Assembly (NCBI GenBank): GCA_964419335.1
Contig: CAYQOX010000024.1
Span: 1,162 to 65,161 of the forward strand
DNA from: an uncultured bacterium
GTDB taxonomy: Bacteria > Hinthialibacterota > Hinthialibacteria > Hinthialibacterales > Hinthialibacteraceae
Direction: 5' to 3'
Length of the DNA: 64,000 bases
Each line of letters opens with the position of its first letter. Position 1 is the stretch's first letter. Below the pieces are notes generated by a model. The model did no database searches, had not been told where the DNA came from, and saw nothing but the letters and a program-made list of their open reading frames with translations. Both the position numbers and the translations under genes were made by a program. Shown piece by piece: positions 17,593 to 52,619 of the stretch.

Positions 17593-18978
17593 ATGAACAT
17601 TACTCTCATGAATCTCCATCTTCAAAATAATCACCATACAGACTTTGATATCATTCTCGACTCCATCGCCGATGGCGTGTTTACCGTCGATCACGAATGG
17701 AAAATCACCAGCTTTAACCGCGCAGCCGAAGAAATTCTTGGTATTCCCCGGGATGAGGCCATCGGTCGCCCCTGCTGCGAAGTCTTTCGCTCCAGCATCT
17801 GCGAAAGCCAATGCGCCCTAAGTGAAACCATGCGCTCCGGCCAATCCATTGTGAATAAAACCATCTTTGTCGTGAACACCAAAGGCGAAAAAATCCCCAT
17901 CAGCATTTCTACCGCCATCCTCAAAGATGAAGAAGGTAACATCATTGGCGGCGTAGAAACCTTCCGGGATGTCAGCCAAGTAGAAGAATTAAAAAAAGAA
18001 CTCACCAAACAATACTCCTTCATGGATATTCTCGGCCGCAGCCCCTCCATGCAAAACATCTTCGAAATTCTCCCCCATATCTCCCAAAGCAACGTCGCCG
18101 TTCTCCTCAGCGGCGAAAGCGGCACCGGCAAAGAACTCTTCGCCCGCGCCATCCATAATATCTCCCCCCGCGCCAAATATCCTTTCGTCGCGGTTAACTG
18201 TGCCGCCTTGCCCGATTCTTTACTGGAATCGGAACTGTTTGGCTACAAAGCCGGCGCCTTTACCGACGCAAAACACAATAAAGCCGGACGCTTTTCTCTC
18301 GCCCACCGCGGGTCTATTTTCCTCGATGAAATTGGCGATATCTCCCCCGCCATGCAGACGCGCCTTCTCCGCGTTCTCCAAGATCAAACCTTCGAACCGC
18401 TGGGCTCCACCGACTCAGTCCAAGTGGACGTCCGCATCATCACCGCTTCCAACAAGGACCTTTCCCAACTTGTTCAACAAGGGGTCTTTCGTGATGATTT
18501 ATACTACCGTATTAATGTCATCAAAATCGATATTCCCCCCTTGCGCGAACGCAAAGAAGATATCCCTCAATTGATCCAACATTTCGTCTCCAAATACAGC
18601 CGTTTAGAATCCAAAGAAATCTCCGGCGTCTCCGACTCCGTCATGGCCACACTGATGGATTACGAATTCCCTGGCAATGTCCGTGAATTGGAAAATATTA
18701 TCGCCCATTCCGTCGTTTTATGCAGCACCGGCACCCTCGAAATCCAACACCTCCCCTCCAACATTCTCCCCCAATCCCTCACTCCCTCCACTCCCTCCAC
18801 AAAACCCATGTCACTTCGCGATATGGAATCTTTCCATATCATGAATTCCATTCGTCAACATCACGGCAATCGCACCGCCGCTGCCAAAGCCCTGGGTATC
18901 CACCCCAGTACGTTGTTCCGCAAAATTAAAGAACTAAACCTCGATCTCCCTGATATGGACGGCCGCCATCGCAAATAA
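17593..18978 (+). CDS. PAS-domain sigma-54-dependent transcriptional activator (enhancer-binding protein, no REC domain)
   Basis: N-terminal PAS; AAA+ sigma-54 interaction domain (GESGTGKELFARAIH, ESELFGY, GAFTDA variant of GAFTGA, FLDEIGD); C-terminal HTH (AAAKALGIHPSTLFRKIKEL). Confidence 0.85.
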   Translation: MNITLMNLHLQNNHHTDFDIILDSIADGVFTVDHEWKITSFNRAAEEILGIPRDEAIGRPCCEVFRSSICESQCALSETMRSGQSIVNKTIFVVNTKGEKIPISISTAILKDEEGNIIGGVETFRDVSQVEELKKELTKQYSFMDILGRSPSMQNIFEILPHISQSNVAVLLSGESGTGKELFARAIHNISPRAKYPFVAVNCAALPDSLLESELFGYKAGAFTDAKHNKAGRFSLAHRGSIFLDEIGDISPAMQTRLLRVLQDQTFEPLGSTDSVQVDVRIITASNKDLSQLVQQGVFRDDLYYRINVIKIDIPPLRERKEDIPQLIQHFVSKYSRLESKEISGVSDSVMATLMDYEFPGNVRELENIIAHSVVLCSTGTLEIQHLPSNILPQSLTPSTPSTKPMSLRDMESFHIMNSIRQHHGNRTAAAKALGIHPSTLFRKIKELNLDLPDMDGRHRK

Positions 18979-19145
18979 TAGTATTGCATAATGCGATCCT
19001 CTTTATCCCTATTTACTCTCCTTTTGCAAGTCTGTCTTTTCGCTAATCTCTGTCCCCTCAAACAAAAATGCTTGAATCTATTATTTTTATAAAAGATTGT
19101 TCTCAATTCCCAAATTTGGCACGTTTCCTGTATACCTACCCTAAC

Positions 19146-19550
19146 ATGAAAGTATCAATCCCGGTTTGGAACCATAGGGTATCGCCCGTATTCGATACCG
19201 CCCGGCGTTTATTGGTCTTCACAGATACAGGAGAAGATCAAATTAAACAGGTGGAATACTTAGTCGAAGGACTTGACTTCTTCCACCGGGTCGAATGTCT
19301 CATTCGCATCGAAGTTGATGTGCTTATCTGTGGGGCTATTTCCAAACCTCTGGAAGATGAGATCGTTTCACGCGGGATTCAAGTCATTTCCCAAGTGTGC
19401 GGAAATGTAAACGAGGTATTCGAAGCCTATTGCTCCAAACGTATTTTTACCGATTACTTCTTGATGCCCGGCTGTTGTAAAAAAAGAAGAATTCGCAATC
19501 GGTTTAGAAAAAAGAAAGGAAAGGATCCATTACGTGAAAATCGCTATTAG
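19146..19550 (+). CDS. NifX/NafY-like (dinitrogenase FeMo-cofactor-binding fold, PF02579-type) small protein with basic Cys-containing tail
   Basis: MKVSIPVWNHRVSPVFDTARRLLVFTDTG...LICGAISKPLEDEIVSRGIQVI fits the NifB/NifX-family fold; ORF 19068 trimmed to ATG 19146. Confidence 0.5.
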   Translation: MKVSIPVWNHRVSPVFDTARRLLVFTDTGEDQIKQVEYLVEGLDFFHRVECLIRIEVDVLICGAISKPLEDEIVSRGIQVISQVCGNVNEVFEAYCSKRIFTDYFLMPGCCKKRRIRNRFRKKKGKDPLRENRY

Positions 19551-19896
19551 TTCCCAAGGGAAACACTTGGATAGTCCAATCGATCCTCGATTTGGACGCG
19601 CATCGTACTTCATCATCGTCGACACAGAAACAGACGAATTTACATGCCATGATAATGACCAAAACAAGAATGCCACCCAAGGCGCTGGGATCCAAACCGC
19701 CAGTACTCTCATTGATCTCGGCGTAAAGGCTGTCATTAGCGGCAACCTCGGCCCTAAAGCCTTTTCAACTTTACAAGCAGATAATATCGATATGTACACC
19801 ATGCCAGCCGGTACCGTCAACGAAGCCGTTACGAAATTTAAAACCAGTCAATTAAATTCTGTAAACAAAGCAAGCGTAGAAGGACGTTGGGTATAA
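19534..19896 (+). CDS. NifX/NafY-like (PF02579-type) cofactor-binding protein
   Basis: MKIAISSQGKHLDSPIDPRFGRASYFIIVD...GAGIQTASTLIDLGVKAVISGNLGPKAFSTLQADNI canonical family pattern. Confidence 0.7.
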   Translation: MKIAISSQGKHLDSPIDPRFGRASYFIIVDTETDEFTCHDNDQNKNATQGAGIQTASTLIDLGVKAVISGNLGPKAFSTLQADNIDMYTMPAGTVNEAVTKFKTSQLNSVNKASVEGRWV

Positions 19897-19897
19897 T

Positions 19898-20779
19898 ATG
19901 AAATCTTATCTTGACTGTATACCATGTTTCATGCGCCAAACCTTGGATGCCATTCGCCGCATCACTGACGATGAAAGCATCCAAGAAAGTGTCCTGCGCA
20001 CCATTTTGCTTGAAGCCAGTCAAATGGATCTAAACGAACCGCCGCCCCGCATGGGACAAAAAATTCATCGCCTTATTCGTAAAAAAACCGGAGTTTCTGA
20101 TCCCTACGAAGAAACAAAACGCCAATCCAATCAGGAAGTCCTTTCCCTCTACCAGGGATTACGCTCCATCATCGACGATACAGATGAATCGATCGAACTG
20201 GAAACTGCTTTTCGCTTAGCCATCGCGGGCAACATCATCGATCTCGGCACTAATTCGCATATTCATCGCGCCGATATCCAAAAAGGAATCGATCAGGCTC
20301 TTGTCGATCCTTTTTACTGGGACCATAAAGAAATACTGAAATCCATCAGCCAAGCCCATAGCATTCTCTACATCGCCGATAATGCCGGTGAAATTGTCTT
20401 TGATCGCTTACTGATCGAACGTCTACCCAAAGATAAAATCACGGTCGCCGTACGAGGCTTTCCCGTCTTAAACGATGCCACCCGCTTCGACGCTGAAGAA
20501 ACCGGCTTAACCTCTCTCGTGCATGTGATTGATACCGGCTCCGATGCCCCCGGCATCCTTCTTGAAGAATGCTCAGACGAGTTTTTACACCATTTCAACA
20601 ACGCCGATCTCATCATGGCCAAAGGCCAAGGAAACTATGAAACCTTAAGCGATCTCAACAGAAAAATTCTTTTCATATTGAAAGCCAAATGTCCTGTCAT
20701 CGCTCGGCACATTGGCTGCCAAGTCGGTGACATGATTTTAACCATGAATCGTTCTCCAGCTACGATTCAACAACCATAA
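19898..20779 (+). CDS. DUF89 family protein (ARMT1-like damage-control phosphatase fold, CxxC subfamily)
   Basis: N-terminal LDCIPCFMRQ motif characteristic of subfamily-I DUF89 proteins; length ~290 aa. Confidence 0.55.
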   Translation: MKSYLDCIPCFMRQTLDAIRRITDDESIQESVLRTILLEASQMDLNEPPPRMGQKIHRLIRKKTGVSDPYEETKRQSNQEVLSLYQGLRSIIDDTDESIELETAFRLAIAGNIIDLGTNSHIHRADIQKGIDQALVDPFYWDHKEILKSISQAHSILYIADNAGEIVFDRLLIERLPKDKITVAVRGFPVLNDATRFDAEETGLTSLVHVIDTGSDAPGILLEECSDEFLHHFNNADLIMAKGQGNYETLSDLNRKILFILKAKCPVIARHIGCQVGDMILTMNRSPATIQQP

Positions 20780-20804
20780 AAAGATATCATTCTAAGAAAG
20801 TGAG

Positions 20805-21212
20805 GTGATGATGATGCCAGGAGGAGACAGAAGAGGACCCTTAGGCATGGGACCCATGACCGGTCGTGCCGCAGGTTTCTGCGCAGGCTACTCCGCCCCG
20901 GGTTACATGAACCCGGCCTTCGGTCCTGGCTTTGGCCGCGGCCGTGGCCGGGGTGGTATGTTCGGCGGTGGCCGTGGTTGGCGTAATTGGTATTACGCCA
21001 CCGGCTTAACCGGTTGGCAGCGTGCTATGGCCGGGATGCCGCCCCATGGATACACCCCTCCCGCGGCGGCACCCGCCCAAGCCCCCCCAAATTGGGCTAT
21101 GAGCAAAAACCAAGAACTCGATGAACTCAAAGGCCAGGCGGAATATCTCGAGGACGCTCTGGATGGAGTAAAAAAACGCATCTCAGAATTGGAAAGCGAA
21201 CAAGCAAAATAA
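20805..21212 (+). CDS. DUF5320-like protein with Gly/Arg-rich N-region and C-terminal coiled coil
   Basis: GPMTGRAAGFCAGY...GRGRGRGGMFGGGRGWRNWYYATGLTGWQR matches DUF5320 conserved block; C-terminal ELDELKGQAEYLEDALDGVKKRISELE. Confidence 0.55.
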   Translation: MMMMPGGDRRGPLGMGPMTGRAAGFCAGYSAPGYMNPAFGPGFGRGRGRGGMFGGGRGWRNWYYATGLTGWQRAMAGMPPHGYTPPAAAPAQAPPNWAMSKNQELDELKGQAEYLEDALDGVKKRISELESEQAK

Positions 21213-21282
21213 ACTAACACTATGTTTGGCTAGGGTTCCTCCCATCATCCCATTCACCCTAGCCATTTTTTTGGAGAATACT

Positions 21283-21849
21283 ATGAGTATCGCGATAACT
21301 GCACAACAACCAACTTTAGATTCCGATGTGGATCCTCGCTTTGGCCGCTGCGCCTACCTTCTCATCGTCAATCCTGATAACTTCGAATTCGATGTCATGG
21401 AAAATCCCAATCTCTCCGCTTCCAGCGGCGCCGGGATCCAAACCGCCTCCCTCCTTTCCGAAAAAGGAGTCGATACCGTCATTACCGGCAACTGCGGCCC
21501 CAACGCCCACCAAACCCTCTCCGCTGCTGGGATCAACGTCATTACCGGTGCCGGCGGCCCCATCCGCGCTGTGCTCGAACAGTATCAACTCAATCATTTT
21601 TCTTCCGCCCAGGGCCCCAACGTCGATTCCCATACCGGCATGGCCAATAACGTAAATCCTTCTCCCGACCCAAATTTAAGTACACCGAATACAGGTTTCC
21701 CCGCCTCGGGTATGGGCCGAGGGAAAGGCCAAGGTCGAGGTGCCGGGGGTGGAGGCGGACGCGGCCAAGGCGGCGGCCGTGGTCAGGGACGAGGTCGAGG
21801 CCAAGGCCAAGGCGGTGGTGCTGGCGGCGGCCGTGGACGCAATCGCTGA
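21283..21849 (+). CDS. NifX/NafY-like (PF02579-type) protein with long C-terminal RGG/GRG-repeat tail
   Basis: MSIAITAQQPTLDSDVDPRFGRCAYLLIV...GAGIQTASLLSEKGVDTVITGNCGP; tail GRGKGQGRGAGGGGGRGQGGGRGQGRGRGQGQGGGAGGGRGRNR; GGAGA RBS; ORF 21226 trimmed to ATG 21283. Confidence 0.65.
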   Translation: MSIAITAQQPTLDSDVDPRFGRCAYLLIVNPDNFEFDVMENPNLSASSGAGIQTASLLSEKGVDTVITGNCGPNAHQTLSAAGINVITGAGGPIRAVLEQYQLNHFSSAQGPNVDSHTGMANNVNPSPDPNLSTPNTGFPASGMGRGKGQGRGAGGGGGRGQGGGRGQGRGRGQGQGGGAGGGRGRNR

Positions 21850-21894
21850 TTAATGTATTCTTACTCACGGATCAACCCAAGGGACTTTCGATCG

Positions 21895-22761
21895 ATGAAA
21901 ATATCAATTGCTAGTGGAAAAGGTGGTACCGGCAAAACCACCATCGCGACCAATCTCGCCTTTGCTCTATCCCAACAAGGCCTTCCAACATCCTATGTGG
22001 ATTGCGACGTTGAAGAGCCCAACGGGCACCTCTTTCTCAATCCCACCCGTGAAAGTCGAGAAACCGTGGGCATCACCGTTCCCTCCGTTAATCAAGAACA
22101 GTGCACCTTATGCGGGCTCTGCGGCCACATTTGCGCCTACAGCGCCATCGTTTGCGTTGGACAACAAGTGCTTACTTTCCCTGAATTATGTCATTCGTGC
22201 GGCGGGTGTTGGTTGGTCTGCCCCCAAAAGGCAATCTCAGAATCTTTTCGTCCCATGGGGGTCATCGAATTTGGACACGCAGGCTCCCTTCAATTCACCC
22301 AAGGAGTCTTAAACATTGGTGAAGTCATGCCCACCCCTGTACTCCGTGAATTGAAGAAAAAAGCCCCTCTGACCGAGGTCTCCATCTTTGACGCTCCCCC
22401 CGGGACCTCATGCCCCGTCATTGAAACCATACTCGATTCTGATTATGTCCTCCTTGTCGCCGAACCCACCCCCTTCAGCTTCCACGATTTGAAACTGGCA
22501 ATCGAGATGGTTCGTGAAATAAAATTACCTTTTGGCGTGGTTCTCAACAAAGCCGATGTGGAATACAGCGACTTGCTTGATTATTGCAATCGCATGCAAA
22601 TTCCAATCTTAGCCCAAATTCCACACCAACGCCCTATTGCTGAAGCCTATTCCCGGGGTGAATTACTCTGTTCTATCTTCCCAGAATATACAAAACTGTT
22701 TTTGGATATTTATAAATCAATTGAAACTGAGGTCGGTCAAACAAAGGGTATGACAATATGA
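21895..22761 (+). CDS. MinD/Mrp-superfamily P-loop ATPase with inserted 4Fe-4S ferredoxin domain (COG1149-type)
   Basis: MKISIASGKGGTGKTT deviant Walker A; CTLCGLCGHICAY and CHSCGGCWLVCP cysteine clusters. Confidence 0.75.
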   Translation: MKISIASGKGGTGKTTIATNLAFALSQQGLPTSYVDCDVEEPNGHLFLNPTRESRETVGITVPSVNQEQCTLCGLCGHICAYSAIVCVGQQVLTFPELCHSCGGCWLVCPQKAISESFRPMGVIEFGHAGSLQFTQGVLNIGEVMPTPVLRELKKKAPLTEVSIFDAPPGTSCPVIETILDSDYVLLVAEPTPFSFHDLKLAIEMVREIKLPFGVVLNKADVEYSDLLDYCNRMQIPILAQIPHQRPIAEAYSRGELLCSIFPEYTKLFLDIYKSIETEVGQTKGMTI

Positions 22762-23654
22762 AAGAATTGGTTGTGATCAGTGGTAAAGGTGGAACCGGCA
22801 AAACTTCCATTGCCGCTTCTCTCGCTGCATTAGTACAAAAGGTCGTTATTGCGGATTGTGATGTGGATGCCGCCGATATGCATTTGCTCCTTTCACCACA
22901 AATTCAATTCAAACAAAACTTTTCTGGCGGCTCCATCGCTCGGATTTTACCTGGACATTGCACCGCGTGTGGCAAATGTGAAGAGATCTGCCGCTTCGAT
23001 GCCATTTACTACGACGGCCCAGGTAATGGCATGGTCGACAAAACCTTTCGAATCAATCCTGTCCAATGCGATGGGTGTGGTGTGTGTGCCTGGTTTTGTG
23101 CAGAACATGCCATTGAATTCAAACCAGCCATCAATGGTGAATGGTATCAATCAGAAACCCGCCTTGGATCCATGGTTCATGCCAAATTAGGTGTCGCCGA
23201 AGAAAACTCGGGAAAACTAGTCACCTTAGTTCGTAATGAAGCAAAAAAACTCGCCCAACAGCAGCAAAGCGATTGGCTTCTCATTGATGGTTCTCCCGGC
23301 ATTGGTTGCCCTGTCATCGCTTCCATCACCGATACCGATTTAGTTCTCATTGTCGCCGAGCCCACCCGCAGCGGGATCCATGATTTAGAGCGGGTCGCGA
23401 AACTTACCCATCAACTCAACCTCAAAACCTTTGTTTGCATAAACAAGTGGGATATCAATCCCGAGCTTTCCCAGCAAATCGAAGAAAAAGCCCAAAACGT
23501 ATATTTACATTTTGCCGGCCGCATTCGTTATGATCCTGCATTCGATGCCGCCCAAAGAGAGCAGAGAACCCTCATCGAATTCCAACACAATGGTTCAGCG
23601 GATGATATCAAAAAATTATGGACAAACATAATCAATCATAAGGAGAGCAGATAA
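22758..23654 (+). CDS. MinD/Mrp-superfamily P-loop ATPase with inserted 4Fe-4S ferredoxin domain (paralog)
   Basis: ISGKGGTGKTS; CTACGKCEEICRF and CDGCGVCAWFC clusters; ATGA start/stop overlap with upstream paralog. Confidence 0.75.
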   Translation: MKELVVISGKGGTGKTSIAASLAALVQKVVIADCDVDAADMHLLLSPQIQFKQNFSGGSIARILPGHCTACGKCEEICRFDAIYYDGPGNGMVDKTFRINPVQCDGCGVCAWFCAEHAIEFKPAINGEWYQSETRLGSMVHAKLGVAEENSGKLVTLVRNEAKKLAQQQQSDWLLIDGSPGIGCPVIASITDTDLVLIVAEPTRSGIHDLERVAKLTHQLNLKTFVCINKWDINPELSQQIEEKAQNVYLHFAGRIRYDPAFDAAQREQRTLIEFQHNGSADDIKKLWTNIINHKESR

Positions 23655-23655
23655 A

Positions 23656-23994
23656 ATGAAGATTGCCATACCCGTTGTTGATGAAAAATTATCGGCTCAT
23701 TTTGGTCATTGTGAGTATTTCTCTTTGTACGAGGTGGATGAAAACACAAAGTCTATCCGTAGCCAATCCCAGCACACCCCGCCCCCGCATGAACCTGGCC
23801 TATTACCCCAATGGCTGCACGACCTGGGAGCGGATGTCATCATTTCCGGGGGCATGGGACAGCGGGCCCAACGCCTTTTTCAACAAAAAGGCATCCAAGT
23901 CATCGTCGGCGCCTCCAACGATCCCCCCGAAACCATCGTTACTCACTACATCAATAATTCTCTCGAAACCTCCTCCAACATGTGCGATCACTAA
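23656..23994 (+). CDS. NifX/NafY-like (PF02579-type) cofactor-binding protein
   Basis: MKIAIPVVDEKLSAHFGHCEYFSLYEV...LGADVIISGGMGQRAQRLFQQKGIQVI. Confidence 0.65.
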   Translation: MKIAIPVVDEKLSAHFGHCEYFSLYEVDENTKSIRSQSQHTPPPHEPGLLPQWLHDLGADVIISGGMGQRAQRLFQQKGIQVIVGASNDPPETIVTHYINNSLETSSNMCDH

Positions 23995-24000
23995 CCCAAA

Positions 24001-24028
24001 GGCCTGCCCCTTCCCGGGGCAGGCCTCC
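24001..24028 (+). terminator. perfect 10-bp GC hairpin (ggcctgcccc-ttcc-ggggcaggcc) after the NifX cluster, no T-tract
   Basis: Seen directly; weak intrinsic terminator or RNA-stabilising hairpin. Confidence 0.35.
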
Positions 24029-24207: not shown

Positions 24208-24849
24208 ATGCATAAAAAAACATTAAGGAAAAGATGGGGTGAGTTAGTCTTTCGACTGGCGGGGAAGAATCTTTCCAATGCTTCTCTCCGTCGTTCACGG
24301 GCTTTTTATAATTTAATTGGTCGTTTTTATGATTGGCTTTATACCAAGCCTATCCACGAGTACCAAAATGCGGCGAACCATCTCGTTGAAAAGTACATCC
24401 CCACAGGGGGAACCGTATTAGACCTAGGCTGCGGCACCGGGGTTTTAGCAAAACGCATCGCTCCACAAGCGGACAACATCCTTGGCTTGGATTTATCCAT
24501 TCGCATGCTCCAACAAGCGAAGAAGAAATTACGTGACCAATCTTCCGCCTTACTCATCAACGCCGATTGCCGTTACCTTCCCTTTCGACCGGGAATTTTT
24601 GATACAATCGTGACCAGCTTCATGTTGGTCATTCTCTCTTCTGAAGAGCGCATCGATGTGATTCAACAGGTGTCTCATTTATTACGTGATGAAGGCCGCG
24701 TCGTGTTTTTAACCTCGCGCGAAGATTTATCCGAGCAATGGTGGAGTCCGGCCATGTGGCGGCAGGCAGGCAATAAAACTGGCTTTACTCAACTTGAGAT
24801 TGAGGATTGTTTTGAATATTATCGAATTGTATGTATGAAAAAAACATGA
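24208..24849 (+). CDS. class I SAM-dependent methyltransferase
   Basis: VLDLGCGTGVLAKRIA motif I; Methyltransf_11-like. Confidence 0.7.
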   Translation: MHKKTLRKRWGELVFRLAGKNLSNASLRRSRAFYNLIGRFYDWLYTKPIHEYQNAANHLVEKYIPTGGTVLDLGCGTGVLAKRIAPQADNILGLDLSIRMLQQAKKKLRDQSSALLINADCRYLPFRPGIFDTIVTSFMLVILSSEERIDVIQQVSHLLRDEGRVVFLTSREDLSEQWWSPAMWRQAGNKTGFTQLEIEDCFEYYRIVCMKKT

Positions 24850-50231: not shown

Positions 50232-51644
50232 CTATTTGAAATTTGTGATCGTGTCGGTAATTTGTTCCATGACCGAGCGTAATTTTTGTTCGGCTTCCAT
50301 TTCTTTCTCAATTTTGTTGTAAGCAAAGAGAACCGTGGTGTGATCTTTGTTCCCGAAAAACGCGCCAATTTCTGGGAAAGAATGCTGGGTTAATTTCCGG
50401 CTGAGGTACATGGCGATTTGCCTAGGACGCGCGATCGAACGCGAACGGTTCTTCCCGATGATATCTGATGGTTTGATGCTGAAATATTCTGCGACTTTTC
50501 GTTGGATTTTCTCAATCGTGACTTCCTTGGTGGGACGGTCGAAGATCTCCCCGAGCACCTTACCCACTGTTTCAACGTTGAGATTCTCATTCGAAAACTT
50601 CGCGTAGGCGGTAATCTTGGCGAGGGCGCCTTCCAACTCACGAATGGAAAAACGCACTTTACTGGCGAGAAATTCCAAAATGTCATCGGGGATGATCATA
50701 TCCTCGGTTTCACATTTTTTCCGTAAAATCGCCATACGCATCTCAAAATCGGGAGGGGTAATATCTACGATCAATCCCCACTCGAAGCGTGAGCGGAGGC
50801 GGTCTTCGATGGTGGGGATATCCTTAGGCGGACGATCGCTGGAAATCACGATTTGTTTGCGGCGGTTATGGAGCGCGTTAAACGTATGGAAGAATTCTTC
50901 CTGGGTAGATTCTTTCCCCGCTAGAAATTGAATATCGTCGATCAGCAAGACATCCACATTACGGAAGGTGGATTGAAACGAGAGGCGGGCGTTGCGCTTA
51001 ATCGCATCGATAAAGACGTTGACGAATTGTTCCGCCGAGAGATAGACCACCCGCTTGGCGGGGTGTAAATACTGCACTTTATTCCCGATCGCCTGCATTA
51101 AGTGGGTTTTTCCCAGTCCGACACCGCCGTAGACAAACAGAGGGTTGTAGGATTGGGCTGGAGCAGCGGCCACCGCTTGAGCGGCCGCATTCGCCATTTT
51201 GTTACATGTTCCAACCACGAAATTGTCAAAAGTATAACTGGCGTTTAATGGTTCAAACTCAAGCAATCCTTCTGTGCTTGTAATGGCTGGGCTGTAGGAA
51301 GGAGCATAAGAACTTGGGGCTTGTGCCTTCACCTCTTCCCCCATCGAGCCGCTGAGTCGAATTTCTACATCCACAATACAATCCAATAATTCAGAAAATA
51401 TATCCGTTAGCAGGGCATGGTAATTCTTTTCGATGTATTCCCTGCGGTACCCGCTGGGGATACCTAGTATGACGTTACCATCTATGTTTTCAAGGACTTG
51501 TGCATCTTCAAACCAATCTTCTAATTCATCTTCCGTGAGTTTATGACGCAGCGCTTCTTGCGCCTTTTCCCAAAGAGAGCGTGTGTTATCCGTGTTCATT
51601 ACATTGGGCATGACTACCATTTTTTCCATAATCCTCCTTCCCAT
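50232..51644 (-). CDS. dnaA: chromosomal replication initiator protein DnaA
   Basis: AAA+ box LFVYGGVGLGKTHLMQAIGN; domain IV IARPRQIAMYLSRKLTQHSFPEIGAFFG.KDHTTVLFAYNKI; true start probably 51628 or 51620 (GGAGGA RBS at 51633-51638). Confidence 0.9.
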   Translation of the reverse strand: MGRRIMEKMVVMPNVMNTDNTRSLWEKAQEALRHKLTEDELEDWFEDAQVLENIDGNVILGIPSGYRREYIEKNYHALLTDIFSELLDCIVDVEIRLSGSMGEEVKAQAPSSYAPSYSPAITSTEGLLEFEPLNASYTFDNFVVGTCNKMANAAAQAVAAAPAQSYNPLFVYGGVGLGKTHLMQAIGNKVQYLHPAKRVVYLSAEQFVNVFIDAIKRNARLSFQSTFRNVDVLLIDDIQFLAGKESTQEEFFHTFNALHNRRKQIVISSDRPPKDIPTIEDRLRSRFEWGLIVDITPPDFEMRMAILRKKCETEDMIIPDDILEFLASKVRFSIRELEGALAKITAYAKFSNENLNVETVGKVLGEIFDRPTKEVTIEKIQRKVAEYFSIKPSDIIGKNRSRSIARPRQIAMYLSRKLTQHSFPEIGAFFGNKDHTTVLFAYNKIEKEMEAEQKLRSVMEQITDTITNFK

Positions 51645-51649
51645 GCTTA

Positions 51650-52610
51650 CAAACTGTAAAACAGTTCACTAGATGGGAGCCAAAAGTTCAATTCATACAA
51701 TGACTTATGCTCAAAATAGAGCAAAAAAAACCATCCCTCCCTCACTCGGTGGTCCTAAGTGAGCCTTGATCCAATCGCATTGTGACCTCTCAGTTAATTC
51801 AGATTGCGGAAATTATAGAGTTTCTCGATCTTTCCTTTTTATTTCTCAAGGTTTTGTTGTTCGTAAATGGATGTCGTAAAGGAGGGCCTTTTTCTATCCC
51901 TTATTCACAAGTTATCCCCTTTATCCACAGGACTATCCACAGGTTATTAACAAAGCCTTGATTTTTATAATCTTATGAATGTGATTCGTTGTTGATATTT
52001 TTAGCATTCTCTTCGTATTCACGCAATGCCTTTTTCACTTTTTCCGATTAAAACAAGGAAATTAAAAAGGCTGTAAATGGTTTAATGAAAGTCTGTTAGC
52101 CCATCAAAAAAAAATTGAAATTTTTTCAGCCGCTTTTGTTTGTTTTTTGTCTTATTCTTTATAAAAAATTGAATTTATTGACTTTAATAGTTTGGAGAAA
52201 TAGAGAACCTTGAATTTACTTGAAAAAGTTAAGAAAAACCAATTAGATAGAATTAATAGGCCTCGGTTAGATTTCTTGCCAAGACTTCTTCTATCTTCTT
52301 AAAAAACAGTCCATTACAAAAGCATTTTGCAAGAAGATTTTACGAATATCCCCAGAAAGGGGCCTCTTTTTTTGTACCTAAGTTCAATAATTCTTGGTCT
52401 ATAACGAGGAAATGCTTGTATTGACCGATGCGATGATGAAACCTCTTTTCGTTCCTGATCGGCTTTATTTATCCACAGATTTGAGATTTTCTCGTTCAAA
52501 AACGCTGGATTTCGGTCAATCCATCGAACCGGGAGGTGCTTTTTCTCCAAATTCCCTTAAACGTTAGTTGGTTAGGAGCCAAAATACAGAGTAAGACATT
52601 TTAGCATTGG
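51650..52610. other. candidate chromosomal replication origin (oriC): DnaA boxes plus AT-rich unwinding region
   Basis: TTATTCACA 51901-51909, TTATCCACA 51921-51929, CTATCCACA 51933-51941, TTATCCACA 52469-52477; long A/T tract 52100-52200; immediately upstream of dnaA. Confidence 0.65.
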
Positions 52611-52619
52611 AGGTAGAAA

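Follow-up and report, generated by a model that had tools for sequence, protein, structure and literature searches.

A probable orp (orange protein complex) operon and its OrpR-type activator in an uncultured bacterium of the Hinthialibacterota

Background

Which system is made up of a sigma-54 activator, four small proteins of a common fold, two MinD-like iron-sulfur (Fe-S) ATPases, and two further proteins of the families DUF89 and DUF5320? This question is raised by nine genes at positions 17593-23994 of a 64-kb stretch of DNA (contig CAYQOX010000024.1 of GenBank assembly GCA_964419335.1) from an uncultured bacterium of the Hinthialibacterota. The whole stretch is called the window below; coordinates without a locus number are window positions, and all features of the cluster lie on the plus strand. 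A sequence-only reading had taken the genes for an uncharacterised module. Based on sequence comparisons, we are fairly confident that the cluster represents an orp (orange protein complex) operon and the OrpR-type activator that belongs to it. The term uncharacterised was wrong: the OrpR signature of the activator, matches to the orange protein structure 2wfb and to the MrpORP model, and collinearity mark the system as a probable orthologue of the orp/ORP system. The evidence consists of homology, of a gene order collinear with that of an orp locus in Desulfovibrio, of ligand residues that are kept, and of a predicted promoter and operator that are conserved; the new label connects nearly all parts of the cluster to existing experimental work.

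In Desulfovibrio vulgaris Hildenborough, the ORP complex is encoded by orp3-orp4-orp5 and orp7-orp8-orp9, which flank orpR (DVU2106) within DVU2103-DVU2109. OrpR is a [4Fe-4S] PAS redox sensor with C52/C61/C65 and D/E54 in its PAS domain and the sigma-54-contact loop GAFTDA; Orp3 and Orp4 are paralogous Fe-S MinD-like ATPases with two [4Fe-4S] motifs each; Orp8, the orange protein, binds a Mo-Cu-S cluster; and in Orp9 (MrpORP), an Mrp/NBP35 NTPase is joined to a PF02579 "Di-Nase" domain that has the motifs CxHFGHCE and CDH (PMC8359166, PMC6345978, PMC3897727, PMC4641369). Orp3, Orp4, and Orp8 co-purify and obtain Fe-S clusters from MrpORP. Altered cell morphology or division is the only reported phenotype. 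By ChIP-seq, the OrpR regulon was reported to comprise the two orp operons only. According to the OrpR paper of 2021, OrpR is restricted to delta-Proteobacteria.

Layout of the cluster

The activator gene is followed by eight co-directional, tightly packed genes, and all nine open reading frames (ORFs) were recovered at or near the positions first assigned to them. The eight genes encode, in this order, X1, X2, the DUF89 protein, the DUF5320 protein, X3, ATPa, ATPb, and X4. From X1 to X4, the junctions measure -17, +1, +25 (or +34), +70, +45, -4, and +1 nt, which agrees with the short or overlapping junctions claimed by the sequence-only reading. The two overlaps it had named are real: the start of X2 at 19534 is located inside 19146-19550, and ATPa and ATPb share an ATGA at 22758-22761. 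Judging from this latter overlap, ATPb is translationally coupled to ATPa.

A GC-rich hairpin (24000-24026) with an 11-bp stem and a 5-nt loop, without a U-tract, starts 6 nt past the stop codon of X4. It was spotted by eye and then tested by folding; its ΔG is -25.5 kcal/mol (z = -5.1), and 0 of 200 shuffled sequences folded as well. This hairpin is the probable end of the transcription unit. The next gene, which encodes an S-adenosylmethionine (SAM) methyltransferase, begins 213 nt beyond X4. A general scan for terminators and sigma-70 promoters was uninformative: 16 terminator-like sites compare with 9.1 ± 3.2 expected, and none of them is placed at a gene end.

The activator and the comparison with Desulfovibrio

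That a PAS/sigma-54 activator heads the cluster was seen correctly at the outset. The gene at 17593-18978 encodes a sigma-54 enhancer-binding protein (EBP) with the architecture PAS - AAA+ - Fis-type helix-turn-helix, for which Pfam reports PAS, Sigma54_activat (229.7 bits), and HTH_8; the database copy of the protein, P0121, starts at 17608. The PAS domain contains C61-x8-C70-x3-C74 with the acidic E63 at position +2, and the rare loop GAFTDA occurs at residue 221. Three PAS cysteines, D/E at +2, and GAFTDA are the features that define an OrpR-type EBP, and the activator possesses all of them. Of 85 homologues, 82-83 retain the cysteines; in an alignment of 12 close homologues, both the cysteines and the GAFTDA loop are invariant.

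A gene-by-gene comparison was made with the orp locus of Desulfovibrio sp. X2 (L087; X2 is here the name of the strain). It was found with the D. gigas ORP sequence, to which its own ORP is 72% identical. In one direction, this locus encodes an EBP, an X1-like protein, a small Gly/Arg/Gln-rich protein, ORP, two ATPases, and an HFGHC protein. Every core gene of the window has its match there in the same order: the EBP (52% identity over 427 aa, E 4e-167), X1 (28%, E 3e-9, to the first gene of the operon), X2 (42%, E 8e-27, to ORP), ATPa (41%, E 6e-77, to the first ATPase), ATPb (44%, E 3e-85, to the second ATPase), and X4 (31%, E 3e-12, to the last gene; 31-35% if the last orp gene of L088 is included). 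As the best matches pair ATPa with the first and ATPb with the second ATPase, the two ATPase pairs correspond one-to-one.

With the D. vulgaris system, the window shares the PAS-[Cys3] GAFTDA activator, a predicted sigma-54 promoter, a predicted palindromic operator with the core YGCA-N3-TGCG, the orange protein, the pair of [4Fe-4S] ATPases, and the HFGHCE...CDH Di-Nase domain. There are also differences. Whereas D. vulgaris has two divergent operons around orpR, the window has one unidirectional operon, as has Desulfovibrio sp. X2. The fused MrpORP of D. vulgaris is represented in the window by X4, a stand-alone Di-Nase protein, and the window contains no Mrp/NBP35 NTPase; the locus of strain X2 has the stand-alone form, too. 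Because L087 lacks both the fused MrpORP and the divergent layout, neither feature defines the family. In addition, the window encodes an extra ORP paralogue with a Gly/Arg tail, the DUF5320 protein, and the DUF89 protein, and it has AT-rich operator flanks and a very short predicted leader. Finally, its host is probably placed outside the delta-Proteobacteria, unlike the reported range of OrpR.

Three observations were made on related proteins and loci. P0122-P0240, from Desulfobulbaceae and relatives, are EBPs of about 800 aa with two to three tandem Cys-PAS domains (C-x8-C-x3-C) before AAA+; these copies are preceded by an N-terminal PAS-like region without the triad, and the proteins may be multi-cluster redox sensors. 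Just upstream of ORP, L087 (9562-9900) and L088 (9414-9752) encode a 112-aa protein that consists mostly of GQGRGQG repeats, has no Pfam match on record, and may be a functional analogue of DUF5320 and of the X3 tail. In L088 (8942-13317), the gene before the set of ORP, two ATPases, and Di-Nase protein encodes a DUF134 protein and not a sigma-54 EBP; the regulator to which the orp core is wired appears to differ between lineages.

The PF02579 proteins

The sequence-only reading had counted four NifX/NafY-like proteins. A profile search, which it had proposed as a check, assigned all four to PF02579, with scores of 26.7, 85.0, 83.5, and 77.7 bits for X1 to X4 (gathering score 26.3). X2 and X3 have 41% identity; the paralogy of X1 and X4 is distant.

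X1 (19146-19550), a divergent protein of this fold, is encoded by the first gene of the operon. Its Pfam score is borderline; a profile of 18 X1 orthologues matches the PF02579-fold structures 1t3v/1o13 at about 1e-8, which confirms the assignment. The protein has an invariant Cys62 (57/57 orthologues) and an MPGC motif followed by an Arg/Lys-rich C-terminal tail; C110 is kept in 46/57.

X2 (19534-19896, 120 aa) is a homologue of the orange protein (ORP/Orp8), its best match in the PDB being D. gigas ORP (2wfb, E 1.4e-17). X3 (21283-21849, 83.5-83.8 bits) is a second ORP paralogue, again with 2wfb as best PDB match (6e-16), in which a Pro-rich linker and a Gly/Arg tail follow the domain. Its ORF opens at 21226; the start codon is probably at 21283. 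X2 therefore provides the small PF02579 protein homologous to Orp8 that an orp operon contains, and so does X3.

X4 (23656-23994) is a stand-alone homologue of the Di-Nase domain found in MrpORP/Orp9. It aligns with positions 265-365 of the 365 positions of the NCBIfam model MrpORP (130.7 bits, E 7.6e-38). SAHFGHCE, which includes the motif HFGHCE, is found near the N-terminus, and the C-terminus ends with CDH. H15 and C110 are kept in 28/28 sequences, H18 in 26/28, and C19 in 25/28.

The DUF89 and DUF5320 proteins and the glycine-rich tails

The assignment of the two accessory proteins, a CxxC-type DUF89 and a DUF5320 protein, stood in Pfam with 229.5 and 78.2 bits. The former (19898-20779) is a DUF89/ARMT1-like metal-dependent phosphatase of the subfamily I type. 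It resembles the subfamily I protein PH1575 of P. horikoshii (2g8l, 2.6e-44) over the full length, including the N-terminal CxxC. Its conserved cysteines are C7-x2-C10, which form this CxxC, as well as C225 and C265, kept in 9/9 orthologues. With 185.8 bits, the protein is below the equivalog cut-off of 440 for the NCBIfam damage-control phosphatase, and it is an occasional member of orp operons.

The DUF5320 protein (20814-21212) probably starts at 20814 (MPGGD...), in an ORF that opens at 20805. An N-terminal motif, MPGGD..GP..GP.TGR..G.C, is followed by a cationic region rich in Gly, Arg, and aromatic residues, and by a C-terminal coiled coil. The N-region has a pI of 11.5 and contains 22 G, 9 R, and 11 aromatics in 75 residues; a single cysteine, C26, is invariant (28/28). 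The family comprises 3,263 clusters at 50% identity. In several loci of Desulfobacterota type, the X3 orthologue runs on into a DUF5320 domain above the Pfam threshold. No second Pfam domain was found in the longer proteins among the 150 closest DUF5320 relatives, which are probably due to over-extended starts; PF02579-DUF5320 fusions are thus a minority, seen in the Desulfobacterota-type loci. A full-text literature search found no discussion of a link between DUF5320 and orp, and the mentions of DUF5320 that it found were unrelated; searches on COG1149 and COG1433 gave nothing relevant.

As a side observation, X3-type genes in L010, L034, L040, L053, and L058 encode single proteins that combine an ORP-like PF02579 domain, (GMGR)n-type repeats, and a DUF5320 coiled coil. 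L011 and L053 have a further C-terminal 2x[4Fe-4S] ferredoxin domain; of these two, only L053 also has a DUF5320 score.

The tail of X3 leads to a second interpretation. It comprises 83 aa with a pI of 12.0, 30 G (36% Gly), and 9 R, contains no aromatic residues, and is kept in kind across 21 orthologues. IssA (PF2025), the thioferrate Fe-S storage protein of Pyrococcus furiosus, consists of an IPR003731 domain and a Gly-rich cationic tail. Proteins are assigned to IssX if pI is at least 8, the number of Cys is below 10, and the last 40 residues contain at least 10% Gly; for IssA, a pI of 9 or higher, a Cys count below 5, and a Gly content of 20% or more are required. The whole X3 protein (pI 8.8, 2 Cys) is within the IssX thresholds and narrowly misses the pI threshold of IssA. 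It is possible, if doubtful, that the cluster serves an IssA-type storage or mineral handling, in which anionic material, thioferrate-like (FeS2-)n or FeS(aq), would be bound by X3, DUF5320, and X1; under sulfidic, reducing conditions, its loading or mobilisation would fall to the Fe-S ATPases. X3 is built as IssA is described, from an IPR003731/PF02579 domain, a linker rich in Pro, and an unstructured, cationic tail rich in Gly; the N-region of DUF5320 has, as has the IssA tail, a high content of Gly, Arg, and aromatic residues; there are fusions of PF02579 with DUF5320, some of which contain an extra ferredoxin domain; and related loci have Mrp/NUBPL and NifU_N genes as neighbours. However, the likeness of the tails is one of composition only, and the X3 tail lacks Trp and Tyr, which are prominent in that of IssA. 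In the PDB, X3 is closest to the orange protein, whose bound cluster is Mo-Cu-S and not thioferrate; thioferrate binding by X3 is putative. Moreover, X3 belongs to an operon with ATPases, whereas IssA acts, as far as published, without dedicated ones.

The MinD-like Fe-S ATPases

The two proteins described by the sequence-only reading as MinD/Mrp-class ATPases with 2x[4Fe-4S] are indeed of this kind: in both, Pfam reports CbiA/ParA and Fer4, and each possesses GKGGTGKT and two CxxCxxCxxxC motifs. They are 35% identical and correspond to the neighbouring, paralogous Orp3/Orp4 pair of the orp system, in which each MinD-like ATPase has two [4Fe-4S] motifs. ATPa (21895-22761) is of Orp3/Orp4 type; it probably starts at 21895 rather than at the ORF opening at 21853, because an identical database protein, P0001, has 288 aa. 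GKGGTGKT, C70/73/76/80, C99/102/105/109, and C173 are kept in 31-32 of 32 ATPa orthologues. For ATPb (22758-23654), C68/71/74/78, C104/107/110/114, and C184 are kept in 31/31. Besides the eight ferredoxin cysteines, each ATPase has a single invariant cysteine in a GxxCP segment (C173 in ATPa, C184 in ATPb), and these two could contribute to an inter-subunit site.

The AlphaFold model of ATPa has a pLDDT of 91.7, and the nearest folds of the model are archaeal MinD, ATPase-type HypB, FleN/FlhG, ApbC, and Cfd1. The ferredoxin insert is absent from all best-matching solved structures listed for ATPa (query-normalised TM-score about 0.5-0.6). With MinD/ParA and with Mrp/NBP35/ApbC/HypB, the window ATPases share the deviant Walker A motif GKGGTGKT, a MinD-like core, and a C-terminal helix; what sets them apart is the ferredoxin-like module, about 60 residues long, in which eight cysteines are conserved. 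The CxxC motif of Mrp-type ATPases is absent, and the window ATPases have instead the invariant single cysteine in GxxCP. In the NCBIfam comparison, their scores for MinD are far under the cut-offs, and no minC or minE is nearby.

Alternatively, the cluster could be a device for cell division or positioning. Its ATPases would then be spatial regulators at the membrane or a pole, a role proposed for D. vulgaris, and the small metalloproteins would be redox-sensitive cofactors or regulators. We consider such a role rather unlikely. It would fit the nearest solved folds, i.e. archaeal and bacterial MinD, FleN, and FlhG, and the C-terminal segments of both ATPases, whose helical hydrophobic moment is about 0.65. 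Furthermore, a MinD-like amphipathic helix has been reported at the C-terminus of Orp3 and Orp4, MrpORP is polar, and loss of OrpR leads to morphological defects in D. vulgaris. On the other hand, neither MinC/MinE nor FtsZ or other division genes are linked to the cluster in the window or in related loci, the link to division in Desulfovibrio is called putative by its authors, and four cluster-binding proteins and the cationic tails would be left unexplained.

Regulatory DNA

We scanned species-representative genomes with an alignment of the PAS domain, which yielded more than 590 relatives, and took 80 loci from many phyla; regulatory motifs were counted over 78 of these loci. The sigma-54 promoter that the sequence-only reading had proposed to look for within 18980-19145 was found at 19117-19132 (TGGCAC-GTTTC-CTGTA, i.e. 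TGGCACGTTTCCTGTA), with the -24 GG at 19118-19119 and the -12 element at 19130-19131. It has two mismatches and is the sole match in the 167-nt intergenic region, which places a sigma-54 promoter, in silico, before the orp genes. A mismatch-tolerant scan with a background estimate detected a sigma-54 motif at most 450 nt after the EBP gene in 42/78 loci, compared to 0.065 expected; a strict pattern missed many loci (23/78). The offsets cluster at 131-178 nt, that of the window being 141, and the variant -12 element CCTGY also occurs in L004, L005, L006, and Desulfovibrio sp. X2. Taken alone, the predicted promoter would be marginally significant; the comparative evidence makes it convincing.

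A predicted activator-binding site (upstream activating sequence, UAS1), the palindrome ATTGCATAATGCGAT at 18983-18997, starts 5 nt past the stop codon of the EBP gene. A predicted, degenerate UAS2 (CTCTCCTTTTGCAAG, 19016-19030), at a distance of 33 bp from UAS1, retains the right half-site only. The palindrome nTYGCR-N3-YGCRAn was observed at most 130 nt after the EBP stop codon in 21/78 loci versus 0.053 expected, and related loci usually have two palindromes, spaced by 32-33 bp and most frequently at offsets 4 and 37. The core YGCA-N3-TGCG is common to ATTGCATAATGCGAT, to the experimentally defined OrpR box of D. vulgaris, GGGCGYRTTTTGCGCCC, and to GACGCATTTTGCGTC of Desulfovibrio sp. X2; the flanks of UAS1 and of the OrpR operator differ. 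The four closest orthologues of the EBP (about 70% identical) are encoded directly upstream of PF02579/DUF5320 genes, and their intergenic regions share the sigma-54 promoter and the palindrome beside the EBP stop codon.

These data bear on the trivial explanation that the genes are merely adjacent, form no functional unit, and are preceded by a chance match to the sigma-54 motif. The motif statistics of the window are in its favour, since the number of two-mismatch motifs (18) is under the expectation from shuffled sequences (26.6). Yet the same gene order recurs in independent phyla, the junctions overlap or measure at most 70 nt, and promoter and operator are conserved in position, which renders this explanation extremely improbable.

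Two observations concern the leader. The start codon of X1 is located 28 nt past the -24 GG of the promoter, and this distance is 25-32 nt in 16/33 loci (including L003, L004, L045, and L065). Such a spacing implies a leader of about 0-8 nt without a Shine-Dalgarno sequence; the orp transcripts look as if they were of a near-leaderless sigma-54 type. In L005 (11520-11990; GCA_964412555.1, on one contig with L008), the leader between the sigma-54 promoter and X1 has a length of about 490 nt and holds about five tandem copies of a unit of about 52 bp (GGAGCTTACCCCAACGGGGTTTAAGATGATCGCTTGATGTTTAAC...).

Related loci and the question of a client enzyme

Gene neighbourhoods were counted over 54 species-level loci with at least 5 kb downstream of the OrpR-like EBP. 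Co-directional PF02579 genes follow the EBP in 40/54 loci, and the pair of ATPases is also present in 27/54. An X1-type gene comes first after the EBP in 30 of the 40 loci with PF02579 genes. DUF5320 occurs in 18/54 loci, DUF89 in 5/54, the latter mainly in loci labelled Planctomycetota or Omnitrophica. According to these counts, the core consists of the EBP, the PF02579 proteins, and the ATPase pair; DUF5320 is a common and DUF89 a rare accessory. An Omnitrophica metagenome-assembled genome (MAG), L003, which contains one of the four closest EBP orthologues, has a gene order identical to that of the window. The pairing of OrpR and orp genes, with operator core and sigma-54 promoter, was observed in MAGs labelled Planctomycetota, Omnitrophica, Zixiibacteriota, Hydrogenedentota, Acidobacteria, Gemmatimonadota, Ignavibacteriaceae, NC10, and Nitrospirales. 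An Mrp/NUBPL gene is found in eight loci and is positioned directly upstream of X4 in three of them (L039, L045, L065), where the adjoining genes amount to a split MrpORP. Other recurrent neighbours encode NifU_N (4 loci), radical SAM proteins (6), metallo-beta-lactamase (MBL) hydrolases (8), and 4HBT thioesterases (6); a small Gly/Arg-rich, zinc-ribbon-like protein occurs in nine related loci. Separately, L004 (8616-9341) and L076 (9526-10323) have a 1-Cys peroxiredoxin gene inside the orp operon (AhpC-TSA/1-cysPrx_C in L004), which is consistent with a connection to redox stress.

A survey of conserved gene neighbourhoods had been proposed by the sequence-only reading, which considered the cluster a NifX/NafY/NifH-like maturation or carrier module that builds or inserts a metallocofactor into an enzyme encoded elsewhere. 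Some evidence is in line with this view: PF02579 is the fold of FeMo-co and NifB-co carriers, the SIMIBI ATPases NifH, HypB, CooC, and ApbC insert metal centres, with HypB and ApbC among the nearest folds of ATPa, and a radical SAM gene recurs in six related loci. However, the scan of 40 further ORFs with Pfam, by which the rest of the window was covered, detected no nitrogenase, carbon monoxide dehydrogenase (CODH), hydrogenase, or Mrp/NBP35 gene, in agreement with the initial statement that nitrogenase structural genes are absent. Likewise, none of the nitrogenase-like, CODH, or hydrogenase enzymes, nor any other complex metalloenzyme, recurs beside the cluster in the 54 related neighbourhoods, and a dedicated client thus found no specific support. 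The closest characterised relatives are ORP proteins and not Nif proteins: the window proteins are most similar to the stand-alone ORP, TM1816, MTH1175, and PH0822 type, and there is no NifB radical-SAM fusion. The D. vulgaris OrpR regulon, as reported from ChIP-seq, includes no client enzyme. We therefore judge this module to be quite improbable. Of the analogy with NifX, NafY, and the C-terminal domain of NifB, the common PF02579 fold stands; it ends at this level, and nif genes (nifEN, nifB, nifHDK) are found neither in the window nor in related loci. A nitrogenase-like reading was rejected for the same lack of nif context. What holds up is the theme of sigma-54 control and metal-cluster-binding proteins.

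The identification as an orp operon has to be balanced against several points that weigh against it. The -12 element of 19117-19132 is non-canonical (CTGT instead of TTGC), and the motif by itself occurs at close to chance level: the two strands of the 64 kb contain 18 matches, from which about 0.02 would be expected in the 167-nt region, and the match is weak in isolation because two-mismatch matches are no commoner in the window than in shuffled sequences. The predicted UAS2 is merely a half-site. In 14/54 loci, a similar PAS EBP is followed by heterogeneous neighbours without co-directional orp genes, which indicates that the regulator family is not tied exclusively to orp; in one of these (L086), orp genes are located divergently upstream. 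An Mrp/NBP35 P-loop partner for X4 is missing in the 64-kb window, and with it, locally, the Fe-S donor known from Desulfovibrio. The comparison with this genus was made via D. gigas ORP, Desulfovibrio sp. X2, the NCBIfam model, and published motifs.

Proposed mechanism and function

Based on the orp assignment, the following mechanism can be proposed, for which redox sensing, sigma-54 dependence, complex formation, and cluster binding are taken over from the experiments with Desulfovibrio, and for which we infer the physiological role. The PAS domain of the activator would carry a redox-sensitive [4Fe-4S] cluster with the ligands C61/C70/C74 and possibly E63. The activator would be active under strongly reducing conditions, and a rising redox potential would shut expression off. 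In its active state, it would bind to 18983-18997, and perhaps to 19016-19030, just downstream of its own gene, and drive open-complex formation at the sigma-54 promoter 19117-19132. A single mRNA of about 4.9 kb, from X1 to X4, would end at the hairpin 24000-24026. The products are expected to form an ORP-type metalloprotein assembly with three kinds of components. The first would be a heterodimer of the MinD-like ATPases with two [4Fe-4S] clusters each, equivalent to Orp3/Orp4. The second, made up of X2, X4, and X1, would hold inorganic metal-sulfide clusters non-covalently or by few ligands. As the third, this lineage would have cationic modules rich in Gly/Arg (DUF5320 and the tails of X3 and X1), which are suited to anionic metal-sulfide species.

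The most likely function of this assembly is the ATP-dependent binding, holding, or hand-over of Fe-S (possibly Mo/Cu-S) clusters in strictly anaerobic growth. The handling of Fe-S or metal-sulfide species is favoured because of the PF02579-DUF5320 fusions and the Mrp and NifU neighbours; similarly, the recurrent Mrp/NUBPL and NifU_N neighbours and the IssA-like tails favour Fe-S handling over the tentative role in cell division. These orp associations supply testable hypotheses on the function of ORP without settling it. Compared to the literature searched, the occurrence of orp outside the delta-Proteobacteria, the link of DUF5320 to orp including the fusions, and the IssA-like tails are modest additions.

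One may speculate further that DUF5320, the tailed X3, and the tailed X1 are three variants of a single module, disordered and cationic, which binds anionic metal-sulfide clusters or polymers in the manner of the IssA tail, and that orp operons are redox-gated, ATPase-driven machines for the storage and mobilisation of Fe-S or thiometallates, widespread beyond the delta-Proteobacteria. We would not expect this extended proposal to hold; if true, it would assign a concrete function to the ORP complex and to the DUF5320 family.

Neighbouring genes in the window

The gene following the hairpin (24208-24849) encodes a class I SAM methyltransferase, whose best NCBIfam match is the corrinoid-protein-associated CpaM (74 bits versus a cut-off of 180 bits). 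In L003, a methyltransferase weakly similar to it (31% identity) is encoded upstream of the EBP. Elsewhere, the window contains genes for sulfatases, a pectate lyase, GFO/IDH/MocA proteins, and glycosyltransferases, as well as cysS and dnaA. Judged by the nearest homologues, which belong to Phycisphaerae, Planctomycetota, and Omnitrophica, and by neighbouring genes such as those for the sulfatases, the pectate lyase, and GFO/IDH/MocA, the host is probably a bacterium of the PVC group. The dnaA gene is located at 50232-51644 on the minus strand, and the cumulative GC skew has its minimum at about 40-50 kb and rises afterwards. The chromosomal replication origin is probably near dnaA, perhaps in the 975-nt gap 51645-52619.

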